DNA from: Malacoraja senta
Taxonomy: Eukaryota
Assembly (NCBI GenBank): GCA_038087875.1
Contig: CM075992.1
Span: 2,234,001-2,298,000 of the forward strand
DNA: 64,000 bases
Reading direction: 5' to 3'
Position numbers and translations under genes: made by a program. Within the stretch, counting starts at the first letter, position 1. Every line of letters begins with the position of its first letter. Below, piece by piece: positions 9,517 to 18,168 of this stretch. The notes under the pieces were generated by a model. It was not told the origin of the DNA, made no database searches, and was given only the letters and a program-made list of their open reading frames with translations.

Positions 9517-10602
9517 TCACACGAAGGTTGTACATTCTGGCATTATTGGCGAGTCTAGTGCCTCGTGCTTGTGGTAAGATCGATCCAAGGTACTGGGGTG
9601 GTGAAGGGTGACGAAGCAAGTGTCCATCCGTGCCTTTTTGTCCATCAGCGAGCTGCAGCAGAGAATGTGCAGGAACGCCCTGCGCATGTCCCTGCTCCTC
9701 AGGGTGTAGATGATGGGGTTCATGGCAGAGTTGAGGATGGCCAAGCCCAGAAAATACTCGGCTTTGTACAGAATCTTGCACTCGGTCCCCTTGTAGGCAA
9801 AGTCCAGCAGCAAGATGATGAAGGTGGGCGCCCAGCACACGATGAACACTCCGAGGACGATGGTCACGGTCTTCAACAAGGCCAAGGTCTGAGGGGCCGC
9901 CGTTTCACAGTGGCTCGATCGCACAATCAGGTAAATCCGCACATACAGAATGACGATGGACAGCAGGATGATGCTCAGGAGGGTGATGCAGAATAGAATG
10001 TAGTTCTTAGAGAAGAGCGGGAGCACGGTGGAGCAGCCACTCTGGTGACACATGCAGTTCCAGCCCATGATGGGCAACCCGCCCAGCAGCACGGAGGCAA
10101 TCCAACAGCTCCCGATCAGCAGGCACATCCGACTGTTCTTGTCGCTACTGTACAGTTTGACTTTCACAATGGCGGCGTGCCTCTCGATAGCGATGGCCAG
10201 GAGACTGAGGACTGAGGCCGACAGCACGATGAACATGGTGCCCTCTCGGAAAAACCACTGCAGCGGAGTCAGAGTCATGGTCCATGCACCCGAGAAGGCA
10301 AGGTTGAAGATGTAAGTGAGGCCCGCAAACAGGTCGGACAGCGCCAAGTTGCCGATGAAGTAGAACATGGCCGAGTGGAACTTCTTGTATCTACAGATGG
10401 CCACCAGAACCAACAGGTTTTCAAGGATGATAAAGGAACACAGGATCATGAAGATGACAGACACCTCAGTCACATCGAATGAATCATACTTGGGGTCCGG
10501 ATACTTACTAGTCAGGTTATAATAATATTTGATCAACTCCTTGTCGTAATAATTGCTGATGGAGCCCACGGGCGCCATGCAGGGTGTATCGTTCTCATTC
10601 AT
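9517..10602 (-). CDS. S1PR2: Sphingosine-1-phosphate receptor 2 (class A GPCR, 361 aa, single coding exon)
   Basis: Seven hydrophobic segments and EDG-family motifs ENLLVL, KFHSAM, LTPLQWFFREG (S1P-binding R3.28/E3.29), AIAIERH, GWNC...CSTVLP, CWAP, NPIIY. S1PR2-type segments VKLYSSDK and RSSH...AAPQTLALLKTVTIVLGVF. Also an N-glycosylation sequon NLT, a palmitoylation-type CC and a PDZ-like C-terminus TTFV. Confidence 0.95.
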   Translation of the reverse strand: MNENDTPCMAPVGSISNYYDKELIKYYYNLTSKYPDPKYDSFDVTEVSVIFMILCSFIILENLLVLVAICRYKKFHSAMFYFIGNLALSDLFAGLTYIFNLAFSGAWTMTLTPLQWFFREGTMFIVLSASVLSLLAIAIERHAAIVKVKLYSSDKNSRMCLLIGSCWIASVLLGGLPIMGWNCMCHQSGCSTVLPLFSKNYILFCITLLSIILLSIVILYVRIYLIVRSSHCETAAPQTLALLKTVTIVLGVFIVCWAPTFIILLLDFAYKGTECKILYKAEYFLGLAILNSAMNPIIYTLRSRDMRRAFLHILCCSSLMDKKARMDTCFVTLHHPSTLDRSYHKHEALDSPIMPECTTFV

Positions 10603-10744
10603 TTCTACAGAAGTCTCTGACAGCTATAGGTAGTTGATTCCCTCGAGGGCATAATGGGTCCCGCGATGCAATCCCACTGTCAGCCGGAGACACAATTCCA
10701 AAGTGTAATCTTCACGTAGACATGCCATTGTCATTTCCAGTCAT

Positions 10745-12766: not shown

Positions 12767-14712
12767 TTAAGAGACTTGAGGATCTCATATCTTCCTAGAT
12801 GCTCCTGCTCCCTCTTGAGCAGTGATATGGACCAAGGTTTCCATCGGGCAGTGGGGATGTTATACTCTTCCTAAGGAGGCTTTGAGACTACCCTTGAATC
12901 AATTTCCACCCCATCCCCTGCCTTCACCATCATCATATCAATCTGATAATCAGTTGCTGTGGTGTAGCTTGAAATAGAGTGCTTATTTTAGGTCACAGGA
13001 ACTGCAGATGCTGGTTTACAACAAAAAGATTGCTGTAGTAACTCAGTGGGTCAGGCAGCATCTCTGGGAAAATATGGATGGGCTATGTTTTGGGTCGGGT
13101 TCCAGCTTCAGACATTATTTTGGGCGTCAGGTGTGGGCTTGTGAACAACATGTTCACTGGGTGTAATTCGGTAATTCGGTGCCATAATGAATTGATGGCC
13201 TTGGAGATCGTGACACTGGATTTGGGCAATTCTGCATAGACAGCCGTAGTGGTATGTCTCCAGTGCTTTTGAGGTGCCTATTATATGCAGTGCACATCTC
13301 AGAATGGATATGAGGTTAGGTACACTGCTGCCTAGTAGACCATGAGCTTCGTGCAGCTTTGCAGGTCTTAATCATCAAAGTATTTTTCTCAAACTCCCAA
13401 GGACAATGCTGGTGCACGGCAGTGGTGGGGGATTTCATTGTCAAAATCTAACTTTGTCAAAATCAGTGGTGTGTATTATCCAGGTTCTTTGTAGTTGGCA
13501 GCCAGCATCATTTAGCAGGGACAGACTGACTTTTGTTTTGCAAATGCTCAGATAAAGGGCCATTCGTTCTCTTCAGTGAATAACTCAATGACGCCTTGGA
13601 ATTTGGCCACCAAACGTGCAGAAATACAGACATCTTCTACGGATGGCAACCCAATGACTGAGTGGAGCCGAGGAACAGAGGTTGAACAATTTCCCGCTTG
13701 TCCGGTCGACTAGTTTCAGTCAGAAGTTTTTTTGAATGCAAAGTGCAACATTGCAGTGTAAAAGATTAAGAACAAGTCAAGATGGAGCCTTGCTAAGACC
13801 CAGTCTGCACCAAGAATTGGCCTCTGATGGTTCTACTGGTTTAAATTAATGCTGCATGCCATCATGTAGCAGTTGGAGAATGGAGATACATTTTGGGGCA
13901 CATATTTGTGAAGGACTGAATCATTTCTAACCTACAAGTTTAATTTCAATATAATGAACTAAGCCATTCACCAAGCTTTTACTTGAACTTTAAGTGGTTC
14001 CAGTGGTCTGCCACATTTGAGTGAACAATGTACAAGATCTGCTTGTCCTGTGGTTTAATTTTGGTTTGGCAGTCTGAGACGACTGTGGGACAGGGAGAAT
14101 CATACAGAATTCAGAAAGAGGCACTCCGTCCGTCTACTGCGTCTGTGCCAGTTGTGAAAGAGCTCCCAGCTTAAACCCTCCCTCCAGCACTGGCCTTTGG
14201 CCCTGCAAGTCACACTGTCCTTTCACACAAACTTCCAGCCTCCTAACTCCCTCTGGGTAAGAAAAATGTCATCTCCCCTCTTTCACCAGCTATTTTTAAA
14301 TTTGTGCACCATGACTTTTGACATCTCAATCCAGGTTCCTTAAATTATACAACTCAGTTAAATTCTCCCACACAATCCTTTGTTCCAAAGAAAGCATCCC
14401 AGGCCTAATCTCTCACAGCTACAATTTTCCAGTCCTGGCAACATTCTTATAAATCTCTTCATCTCATGTGCAATCACCTAATCCCCACAATAGTGACCAG
14501 AACTGAACACAGAACTCACCAAGATGTGGCCCAACCAGTATCATATGCATTCCTTGTACACCTCCTTACATTCTATGCTTCAAGTTAATCTCACCCCACA
14601 GAGCCCAGTCCCTCCACGCACCAGAGTCTCCAAACCCCTGCAGAGTAGTTCCACAGCAACAGATTGAGTGGCCCCCAGCCAGCAACTGGAATGAATGGCT
14701 GCAGTTTGACAA

Positions 14713-14972
14713 GGACGTGCACTCTGCAAAGTCCTCAACCAGTTGGGCATTACAGGGCTGGCCATTCAATCCGTAAGCGAAGTCGCAGAGAAAGCCACTA
14801 GGTGGCTTTGGATTAAGAGGGCTGATCCGTAGGCGGTTGCTGCTGGGATGCAAGTGAACCCAGCTGGGTCGCCTGGGCGAGGGTGTCTGATGTTGTGAGA
14901 CCCGAAACACCCGATAACCCTAGGTCACATCACTGAGGATGCGTTCCAGCGCATCTAGAAGATGTATCTTTC
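14713..14972 (+). mobile_element. 3' end of a HERO/NeSL-type (restriction-like endonuclease) non-LTR retrotransposon
   Basis: The frame from 14713 reads GRALCKVLNQLGITGLAIQSVSEVAEKATRWLWIKRADP*. I recognise AEKAxRWLWIKR from memory as the C-terminal motif of HERO-like elements. A structured 3' UTR follows. Confidence 0.7.
14866..14955 (+). ncRNA. Candidate rearranged (pseudoknotted) hammerhead ribozyme
   Basis: Stem III GGGTGT(14881-86)/ACACCC(14907-12) with GAAA 14904-07. Cleavage triplet GTC (C14887). Stem I TGATGT(14888-93)/ACATCA(14927-32), directly followed by CTGAGGA(14933-39). Confidence 0.6.
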
Positions 14973-15537
14973 ACACAAAGGAAAACAGTGTGTGTTCCTT
15001 TCTGTCCAACCATCTACCTATCAAATAACCCCCCTCACCTCTGTTGGCTTATTACTTCCCAGACATTGTCCTGCCTCTCCTCTCTTCCAGCTTTCTTCCC
15101 CATACAACCAGTCTGACAAAAGGTCTCAACCCGAAACATCACCTATGCATGTTCTTCTGAGATGCTGCCTGACCTGCTTAGCTACGCCAGCACTCAGTCT
15201 CTTCTTTTGTAAACCAGCATCTGGAGTTCCTTGTTTCTACATTGCGTTTGCTTCCTGCCAATAGCTAAATTTGGATCCCACAAGTTTTTCTGTTTGGCTG
15301 GCTAGCCATCCACCATGGTCCTTTAAAAGGTTTAGCTAAAATCCCTCAGATACATCAAATTCTCTGCCCTCATTGGTCCTCCTTGTTACCGCAAATAAAT
15401 CTTGTTAGTGAGGCATAAACTTCCCTTAAATCCAGCCTAAACGTCCTTGATTAATGTACATCTTTGTCAGTGAACATTCATATAATTTCTCAGAATGGAT
15501 TCGAATAATTGTCAACCACCAGAGTTATATCGCACAC

Positions 15538-15999
15538 ACACTCTCCCTGTGCGGTTCCAAATAAATTTCAAGATCCTTCTTTATGTCTACAAAGCCCTTA
15601 ACGGGCTTGCCCCCACCTACATCAAAAGTCTGCTTACCCACCACACCACCTCCAGGTCCCTCAGATCGGCCGACTTGGGGTTACTGAACAACCCGCGGTC
15701 TAGGCATAAGCTCAGGGGCGACCGCGCCTTTGCGGTTGCAGCTCCTAGACTGTGGAACAGCATCCCCCTTCCCATCAGAACTGCCCCCTCCATCGACTCT
15801 TTTAAGTTGAGACTTAAAACTCATCTTTACTCTCAAGCCTTTCTTGACGTCCTCTGAGGGAGGGCTATATGTATGTATTTATGTATGTACTTAATCTATC
15901 AACCACTGTTGTATAACATTAGTACCTCCACCAATGTAAAGCACTTTGGCCAACGAGAGTTGTTTTTTAAATGTGCTATAGAAATAAAAGTGACTTGAC
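15538..15999 (+). mobile_element. L2 LINE 3' fragment
   Basis: LPVRFQINFKILLYVYKALNGLAPTYI...SLRSAD...GDRAFAVAAPRLWNSIP..IRTAPSIDSFKLRLKTHLY is the typical L2 ORF2 C-terminus. The 3' UTR ends TGTAAAGCACTTTG...AAATAAAAGTGACTTGAC. Confidence 0.9.
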
Positions 16000-17704: not shown

Positions 17705-18168
17705 AACTAAGTTACAGAGAAAGGTTGAACAAGTTAGGCCTTTATTTTTTGGAGCGCAGAAGGTTAAGGGGGGGACTTGATAGAGGTCTTTCAAATGATG
17801 AGCGGGTTAGACAGAGTTGACGTGGATAAGCTTTTCCCATTGAGAGTAGGGAAGATTCAAACAAGGGGACATGACTTGAGAATTAAGGGACAGAAGTTTA
17901 GGGGTAACATGAGGGGGAACTTCTTTACTCAGAGAGTGGTAGCTGTGTGGAATGAGCTTCCAGTGGAAGTGGTGGAGGCAGGTTCGATTTTATCCTTTAA
18001 AAATAGATTGGATGGGTATATGGACGGGAAAGGAATGGAGGGTTATGGTCTGAGTGCAGGTAGATGGGACTAGGGGGAAGTTAAAATATTTTTTTTTAAA
18101 GTGTTCGGCACGGACTTGAAGGGCCGAGATGGCCTGTTTCTGTGCTGTAATTGTTATATGGGTATATG
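17705..18168 (+). mobile_element. CR1 LINE 3' fragment
   Basis: ORF 17777-18073 IEVFQMMSGLDRVDVDKLFPL...TRGHDLRIKG..FFTQRVVAVWNELP is the CR1 ORF2 C-terminus. Confidence 0.9.

Follow-up and report, generated by a model that had tools for sequence, protein, structure and literature searches.

The window analyzed here (i.e., 64,000 nt of the forward strand of Malacoraja senta contig CM075992.1, positions 2,234,001 to 2,298,000) contains a truncated copy of a HERO-like non-LTR retrotransposon (LINE), the 3' untranslated region (UTR) of which carries a whole hammerhead ribozyme core in S-G-C order (14881 to 14939; Table 1). The nearest gene is an S1PR2-like GPCR frame on the minus strand (9517 to 10620; uninterrupted for 367 codons from stop to stop; best PDB match, S1PR2). 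The motif is therefore off the strand of this gene, i.e., antisense to S1PR2 as originally described, and it lies inside a decayed repeat copy, upstream of the coding frame by approximately 4.2 kb. Two other open frames on the plus strand (15486 to 15857 and 17768 to 18073) resemble 3' fragments of other LINEs, presumably of the L2 and CR1 types.

The repeat is present in many copies in the M. senta genome (40 scored among 1222 candidates) and forms two families, F1 (that of the window) and F2, with approximately 62% amino acid identity. Longer copies encode a reverse transcriptase (RT; Pfam RVT_1, E value of 3.7e-13; zf-RVT weak, below the cutoff), a zinc knuckle, and a restriction-like endonuclease. 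The open reading frame (ORF) architecture, as pieced together from broken copies plus intact relatives such as P0048, has the features of a HERO-type single ORF, namely, a CCHH finger (seen in tandem neighbors), the RT, a CCHC knuckle, and a C-terminal endonuclease (RPD..ELTVPWE..K), and it resembles that of HERO clade LINEs such as the Tetraodon element (single ORF, N-terminal CCHH finger, RT, CCHC-type knuckle, and C-terminal PD..E..K nuclease). At the protein level, its relatives are elements of fish and lancelets, among them Tetraodon AAN12398.1/BAC82599.1, which we take to be Zebulon/HEROTn of the HERO clade. In an endonuclease-domain tree built without R2, R4, NeSL, and CRE, F1 and F2 join Tetraodon and Danio proteins at 95/88, and the Tetraodon protein P0048 nests in the F1/F2 clade. 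The assignment of the motif to a HERO-like 3' UTR in the original prediction holds.

The window copy consists of a 5' piece of the ORF joined to the last 265 nt of the element: positions 14590 to 14719 align to the 5' part of the ORF in longer copies (L031:2717-2842, 95%; L192, 94%), and positions 14711 to 14976 align to the element 3' end (86%). Twenty-nine aligned copies, including this one, stop at about the same terminal sequence. The core had been placed approximately 50 nt past the ORF stop; this is true of the window copy, but the TAG in question (14830 to 14832) is a mutation private to it. Most family copies read on to ...WAVAAGTQVGA-stop, ending in an arm of hairpin P2 that is absent from the window copy. 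In addition to the private stop, the window copy shows a 12-nt deletion in P2 and a G-to-A change at 14916, and its P2 remnant has a folding energy of 0 kcal/mol (L005, -7.7; L037, -12.0). The window copy is a decayed passenger, and the finding concerns the family. The deletion junction of the window copy (14590-14719/14711) differs from those of L002, L016, L017/L018, and a 535-nt unit described below; several independent deletion derivatives therefore exist.

Table 1. Features of the HERO-like copy and its 3' UTR motif (window positions)
Feature	Position	Strand	Basis
Truncated, internally deleted HERO-like non-LTR retrotransposon copy, family F1	14590..14976	+	
Last codons of the RT/restriction-like endonuclease ORF (AEKATRWLWIKR...)	14711..14852	+	
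P1 5' strand (11-bp clamp helix; two G.U in the window copy); overlaps the ORF end in F1	14842..14852	+	
Hairpin P2 remnant (12 of the 25 nt of intact F1 copies lost here)	14853..14865	+	
Stem II 5' strand, GGGTC (G14866 = G10.1)	14866..14870	+	Covariation, structure-blind alignment
P4 5' strand (CCTGGG); P4 connects stems II and I at their far ends	14872..14877	+	89.6% paired
k-turn-like internal loop, short side (N-GA)	14878..14880	+	
Block S, GGGTGT-C-TGATGT: stem III 3' strand, U16.1, C17, stem I 5' strand	14881..14893	+	Window letters
Block G, GACCC-GAA-ACACCC: stem II 3' strand, G12-A13-A14, stem III 5' strand	14899..14912	+	
k-turn-like loop, long side (family, 3-nt bulge plus GA; window, G to A at 14916)	14913..14918	+	
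P4 3' strand (CCTAGG)	14919..14924	+	
ACATCA-CTGAGGA: stem I 3' strand, then CUGAnGA (14933-39; N7 = G)	14927..14939	+	
P1 3' strand, immediately after A9	14940..14950	+	
Terminal hairpin P5	14951..14965	+	Predicted fold
Element 3' end, TTTCACAC, 89 nt past the predicted cut	14969..14976	+	

The hammerhead strands reported earlier were all recovered when the window letters were read again, with every core letter (C3 U4 G5 A6 N7 G8 A9; G12 A13 A14 A15.1) present and with stems I and III forming perfect 6-bp helices in hammerhead register. In hammerhead numbering, U16.1 corresponds to 14886, C17 to 14887, N1.1 to 14888, C11.1 to 14903, G12 to A14 to 14904-06, A15.1 to 14907, and C3 to A9 to 14933-39, so the scissile bond is predicted to lie between 14887 and 14888. 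The helix that had been suggested to staple the linker (P4; one G.U) is genuine and is conserved across the family. Four further parts were identified here: helix P1, hairpin P2, a loop resembling a k-turn, and a hairpin at the terminus.

A strict S-G-C descriptor matched the window once, at this site (chance level, 0.02 matches per two-strand 64-kb Markov resample; 100 resamples). No Rfam match was obtained at the window motif (E value of ≤10) or in 12 loci (E value of ≤1), as expected because the strand order is permuted. The single-sequence minimum-energy fold of the window (z = -1.41) yields only P1, P4, and stem III, without stems I and II; nested-fold programs cannot represent pseudoknots. 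These two results are what would speak for a chance resemblance in a dead repeat, an explanation to which we give almost no credence: it is refuted by covariation across families with endonuclease domains that are 36 to 67% identical to the query, and the controls for both the relaxed parse (see below) and the strict descriptor are near zero.

Relatives were gathered by protein similarity alone (80 metagenome loci; 36 to 75% identity) and thus were not chosen for RNA structure. Eight loci with too little 3' flank were left out; among the 72 scorable loci, 51 scored at least 22/24 in a relaxed parse, as opposed to 0/75 reverse complements and 0/75 shuffles. Of the other rows, 7 had no parse and 14 scored 17 to 21; they include truncated, deleted, and mutated copies and a subclade without the motif. 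The 51 loci and three M. senta regions (i.e., the window, L005, and L037) make up 54 passing regions, which fall into 32 clusters at 86% identity. Each cluster was given one representative, with five partly misparsed representatives (L089, L099, L110, L112, and L123) kept in the counts.

In a structure-blind MAFFT alignment of the 32 representatives, 86.6% of the cells of P1, II, P4, III, and I taken together were paired (slid controls, 33 to 43%), and changes on both sides were found in 30 of the 33 pairs over these five helices. Every tested helix covaries: double-sided changes occur at all 10 tested pairs of P1 and at 5 of the 6 pairs of P4, and pairing reaches 93.4%, 86.9%, and 93.1% in stems I, II, and III, respectively. 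Each core letter is retained in 50 to 54 of the 54 passing regions as scored by the parse; pair counts that are based on the parse come from a fit to the structure, and the related families are not independent. The noncircular, pseudoknotted order proposed earlier is thus that of a real and conserved core, and the hammerhead-type fold is almost certainly conserved.

Some relatives depart from the pattern. The G10.1-C11.1 pair is found in 22 of the 32 rows (plus 2 with G.U), and one family (L093, L116, L121, and L130) has G.A fixed at this position, which we count against our preferred explanation. A protein subclade nested among motif-bearing families (L103, L111, and L113) has no motif and counts against it as well; these three loci carry GGGATTA-like words downstream. 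Just 3' of P1, 28 of the 32 representatives have a hairpin with a folding energy of -3 kcal/mol or lower, a count made without a shuffle control. No relative was found in the viral contig set. Three loci from the genome-contig set were excluded from the counts, i.e., two short fragments without a UTR and L137, which has a long branch and in which the motif was not seen. Two short contigs in marine bacterial assemblies (L135 and L136; endonuclease 84 to 87% identical to the query) are probably animal DNA contamination.

Stem II had been left ambiguous in the original prediction, with GACCC pairing either to the upstream GGGTC or to the downstream GCGTT. Across the family the question is settled in favor of the upstream strand (86.9% paired; covariation, 0.61), since the downstream pairing reaches only 58.8%, with a covariation of 0.25 versus 0.27 in its slid control. 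An ordinary type-SGC hammerhead, in which GACCC pairs with the strand after CUGAnGA and one extra nucleotide sits at 9.1, is therefore very improbable. Four of its five stem II pairs are possible in the window and in close relatives, and Penelope hammerheads often have a nucleotide between 9 and 10.1; nevertheless, its second pair is broken in 24 of the 32 representatives, and the strand that it needs is occupied by the covarying P1.

Because stem II uses the upstream GGGTC rather than the strand after CUGAnGA, A9 and G10.1 are not linked. The strand that follows CUGAnGA pairs with the end of the ORF as P1, and P2 lies between P1a and the stem II strand; A9 runs into P1 and G10.1 comes after P2, with no direct or 1- to 2-nt joining of the two. 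Sequence comparison gives the strand order as P1a-P2-IIa-P4a-S-G-P4b-stem I 3' strand-CUGAnGA-P1b-P5. There is no unpaired nucleotide at the A9-P1, P1-P2, and P2-G10.1 joints in 26 of the 32 representatives (in a fit that penalized gaps), and P1, P2, and stem II therefore appear to meet the core, at its G12.A9 end, in a perfect four-way junction. We propose that the G12.A9 end would stack on stem II across this junction and that P1 would stack on P2, an arrangement that would preserve the usual geometry of a hammerhead even with A9 and G10.1 on separate strands. A precedent for a two-helix break of the backbone between these nucleotides was not found (the documented insert between positions 9 and 10.1 is one nucleotide only), and this, too, is counted against our explanation. 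The metal site of the hammerhead is formed by the phosphate 5' of A9 and by N7 of G10.1; thus, a break 3' of A9 need not destroy this site.

The k-turn consensus places a 3-nt bulge and then tandem G.A/A.G pairs between two helices. In 23 of the 32 representatives, although not in the window copy, the joint between stem III and P4 has such a bulge of 3 nt together with tandem GA/GA, and on this consensus match the loop appears to be k-turn-like. Such a turn would bend stem III back toward P4. In the P2 loop, a self-complementary hexamer (mostly TGATCA; also TCATGA, TGGCCA, and GACGTC) is found at or near the loop in 20 of the 32 representatives, as counted without a chance control; kissing-loop dimerization or a tertiary contact is possible.

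The hairpin GATGCG/CGCATC, which had been suggested to sequester the core as an on/off switch, can form in the window copy and would break P1. A 6/6 partner was found in just 10 of the 32 representatives, even with G.U allowed and the best of many registers taken (without a chance control); L037 of F2 can form one with wobble pairs. A conserved switch is therefore not supported as a family feature.

The cut site provides evidence that is independent of the score, since the parse leaves U16.1, H17, and N7 unscored. Among the 54 passing regions, U16.1 is U in 52, H17 is C in 30, A in 19, U in 5, and G in none, and all four letters occur at N7. The cleavage triplets are GUC (27), AUA (11), GUA (8), and GUU (5); three others occur once each, and AUC is absent. 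In natural hammerheads, GUC, GUA, and AUA are the triplets in use, and AUC is hardly ever seen (PMC1636495). The A and U states of H17 are spread over several distinct branches of the endonuclease tree, although changes were not formally counted. As judged from the sequences, the triplets follow hammerhead chemistry, and self-cleavage in at least some of the families is likely.

This signature bears on two other explanations. In one, the motif is a silent or negligibly active hammerhead derivative that is kept as a handle for the RT; in the other, it is an active ribozyme that serves RNA turnover or release, cutting element RNA that the element protein does not protect or freeing the unit, at the upstream repeat, from host read-through RNA, with insertion proceeding from uncut, linear, longer-than-unit RNA. 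The absence of G at H17, the free N7, and the triplet spectrum are hard to explain through protein binding alone, as a silent handle would require, while they are what an active turnover ribozyme would show. The broken A9-G10.1 link, for its part, could abolish catalysis and would then favor the silent handle.

Among known ribozymes, the HERO motif is closest to the type-SGC RNAs (HRIMA-1 and variants) of Eckert et al. 2023 (PMC10085705). That study, in its available parts, describes six orders of three unbreakable blocks, reports type-SGC cleavage at 0.007 to 0.19 per min, assumes that block C cannot be interrupted, and refers to retrotransposons or eukaryotes only in reference titles of the text and supplement. 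Both RNAs have the S-G-C order, crossing stems I, II, and III, all core nucleotides, a short linker leading from stem I into stem II, and a helix that joins the far sides of these two stems (P4 in HERO). Unlike type-SGC, HERO has the stem II 5' strand upstream of S rather than attached to CUGAnGA (i.e., block C is not intact), has the P1/P2 four-way junction between A9 and G10.1, joins the I-II helix and stem III on both strands by the k-turn-like loop, and sits in an animal LINE 3' UTR. The HERO motif can thus be viewed, on present alignments, as a type-SGC ring that is closed at the type-SGC ends and opened inside block C.

The carrier also resembles elements with hammerheads of other types. 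According to the available portions of PMC4209133, PMC11167929, and bioRxiv 10.64898/2026.07.22.740005, Penelope elements and retrozymes share with HERO a hammerhead placed in a terminal direct repeat, head-to-tail longer-than-unit copies, a proposed circular RNA template, and small nonautonomous derivatives, and an internal RT start was shown for the Penelope element PAc (PMC11167929). Their hammerheads, in contrast, are classic type I/III or minimal dimer-acting ones that are accompanied by GIY-YIG Penelope proteins or by none, whereas HERO has a restriction-like endonuclease LINE as its host, a variable repeat length, and a ribozyme that is not circularly permuted. R2 elements likewise combine a restriction-like endonuclease LINE with a class of self-cleaving RNA (self-cleavage being predicted in HERO). 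The R2 ribozyme, in the sources available in part, is HDV-like, is located at the 5' end, and sets the RNA 5' end, while the cut site is not where HERO copies start.

The arrangement of genomic copies provides clues about the template. In longer-than-unit copies, the 3' end is fused straight to the element 5' start; 85 near-exact junction matches were found for F1 and 9 for F2, and 59 of the 64 copies with an F1 5' start are directly preceded by 3'-end sequence (tallied by eye). Tandem neighbors also occur in 7 of the 40 scorable metagenome loci, representing six families. In the mapped F1 junction loci (L182 was left out), the upstream pieces measure 10 to 377 nt and cross the predicted cut site in 14 of 29 cases; in 7 of the 29 they measure at least 146 nt, and two motifs flank one unit. 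Full-length F2 units span 3633 to 3946 nt between two motifs, with terminal repeats of approximately 280 to 1175 nt, and L204 is a 2.x-mer. A circular template would explain why full copies sit as one unit plus extra sequence. A tandem structure is said to have been described for Zebulon by Bouneau in 2003.

In 22 of the 30 F1 junction loci, the unit measures approximately 500 to 540 nt and represents a nonautonomous HERO derivative of approximately 535 nt (M. senta loci L165 to L194). This retrozyme-like unit contains the 5' UTR, the ORF start, a short internal piece, and the last 178 nt with the ribozyme motif, and it was inserted as 1.x- and 2.x-mers. Its second-round pieces are at most 168 nt in 27 of 28 cases, which is compatible both with a small circle under strain and with a start site inside the upstream repeat. 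These short pieces also fit a turnover ribozyme with linear templates.

Private variants common to both ends of one insertion numbered 8, compared with 1.95 ± 1.17 after permutation (0/2000; 23 loci). One-sided variants numbered 46 and 44, as later mutation would give; by eye, L206 has a 2-nt deletion common to both ends and L209 has a shared substitution. Both ends were therefore likely copied from the same RNA nucleotides. Copies running in register across the predicted cut site numbered 578, and there were 13 out-of-register matches, none of which has its 5' end at U1.1 and 2 of which start at C17. An RNA cut and left nicked would start copies at U1.1, so these data give no support to a nicked template. 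The missing pileup fits a sealed circle and, equally, an RNA that was never cut. Three 5' ends lie at C17 (L149, L150, and L204) among approximately 10 mapped in a 16-nt span, a number short of significance (binomial, about 0.12). L139, L154, L157, L158, and L164 show small duplications, a fold-back, or a deletion break at C17 or beside it, as noted without a control; these marks could be traces of a nick or of an unusual ligation bond and are suggestive only.

R2-type proteins recognize structured 3' UTRs and jump between templates. For the silent handle, the longer copies would accordingly be products of precise end-to-end jumps along one linear RNA or of linear transcripts from 1.x-mer masters. 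The 578 copies across the cut site without a pileup agree with this explanation, jumping onto the same molecule would produce shared variants as well, and the abstract of PMC12222951 mentions a pseudoknotted RNA. The junctions, however, are near exact, only 5 of the 64 copies with a 5' start have no upstream 3' end where jumping should leave many, and a purely linear master would be expected only to lose its upstream repeat with each generation. Taking these points together with the cut-site signature, we consider the silent handle unlikely.

We rate the turnover ribozyme as equally unlikely. The F1 ORF ends inside P1a/P2, which means that translation or protein binding could toggle folding, and the PAc hammerhead is protein dependent and dispensable for insertion in vitro (PMC11167929). 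Against this, an upstream ribozyme that makes the RNA 5' end predicts stops at U1.1, which were not seen, and the regeneration of a terminal repeat with shared private variants is left unexplained. The exact junctions, the shared private variants, and the read-through of the cut site would point most simply to circularization by cutting and religation, and we put the chances of a circular template at about even.

Under the cycle that we propose, a genomic copy with two complete ribozymes would give a read-through transcript, which two cuts would convert into unit-length RNA. The two RNA ends would be held together by approximately 28 bp (P1, II, P4, and III), so that ligation should be favored, and would be sealed by the ribozyme or by a host ligase. 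The element protein would then bind the folded UTR and start cDNA internally, approximately 90 nt downstream of the seal; cDNA synthesis would round the circle and stop at variable points in the second round, thereby regenerating the terminal direct repeat. This account is taken over from the proposal of Cervera and de la Peña for Penelope elements, i.e., two ribozyme cuts, a circle, and more-than-unit reverse transcription (PMC4209133, available in part), and it is the simplest single account here. PAc provides a precedent for internal priming; its hammerhead is protein assisted, PAc elements with a mutant hammerhead retain insertion in vitro, and the main template is RNA that has not been cut (PMC11167929), so that this dispensability supports the rivals of the circle. 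That the HERO-like 3' UTR motif cleaves and religates itself to give a circular RNA copied for more than one round is, in our judgment, a balanced proposition. The comprehensive statement, which we offer tentatively and hold at slightly below even odds, is that an animal LINE clade, from invertebrate-type families to fish, replicates via circular RNA produced by a seventh hammerhead wiring, the core of which is split at A9/G10.1 and held by a four-way junction and a k-turn, and that it has given rise to 535-nt retrozyme-like minicircle parasites. If true, HERO would be a ribozyme-driven LINE that forms pseudo-LTRs, convergent with Penelope.

No hammerhead in HERO or any LINE 3' UTR was found in a search of full-text literature; a prior account of the tandem structure or the UTR fold may be contained in Repbase reports, in subscription journals, or in Bouneau 2003 and Kojima and Fujiwara 2004, which lay outside its scope. 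For the HERO clade, the same literature likewise yielded no account of a ribozyme, of a 3' UTR structure, or of a circular intermediate. HERO appears without mention of a hammerhead in the available parts of PMC4640811, PMC9004415, PMC13580325, and PMC7650587, Zebulon is only named in that of PMC2684134, and bioRxiv 10.64898/2026.07.22.740005, as available, ties animal retrozymes to Penelope without naming Hero. We therefore found no earlier description of the wiring order of the HERO 3' UTR, which constitutes a hammerhead variant in a new host clade.

The motif breaks a working rule, in that CUGAnGA and stem II need not be contiguous; descriptor searches have thus probably missed a hammerhead class that is multicopy in fish genomes. 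A noncircular permutation, so far reported from metatranscriptome RNAs, is now placed in animal chromosomes, and the k-turn may be a structural answer to the puzzle of Eckert et al. as to how stem III is joined to the I-II helix. For transposon biology, the motif offers an explanation that can be tested for the head-to-tail copies of a LINE clade, and it suggests that insertion could proceed by way of circular RNA. It also bears on R2-family gene-writing tools, in which template RNA ends and stability count.

The start of the 5' UTR is conserved and internally repetitive, with TGAC..CC.GGAA.AG units (CTGGAGAGACAG) that are common to distant families. The same repetitive motif was seen just past the 3' end in L035:-, L057, L076, L077, L078, and L110.
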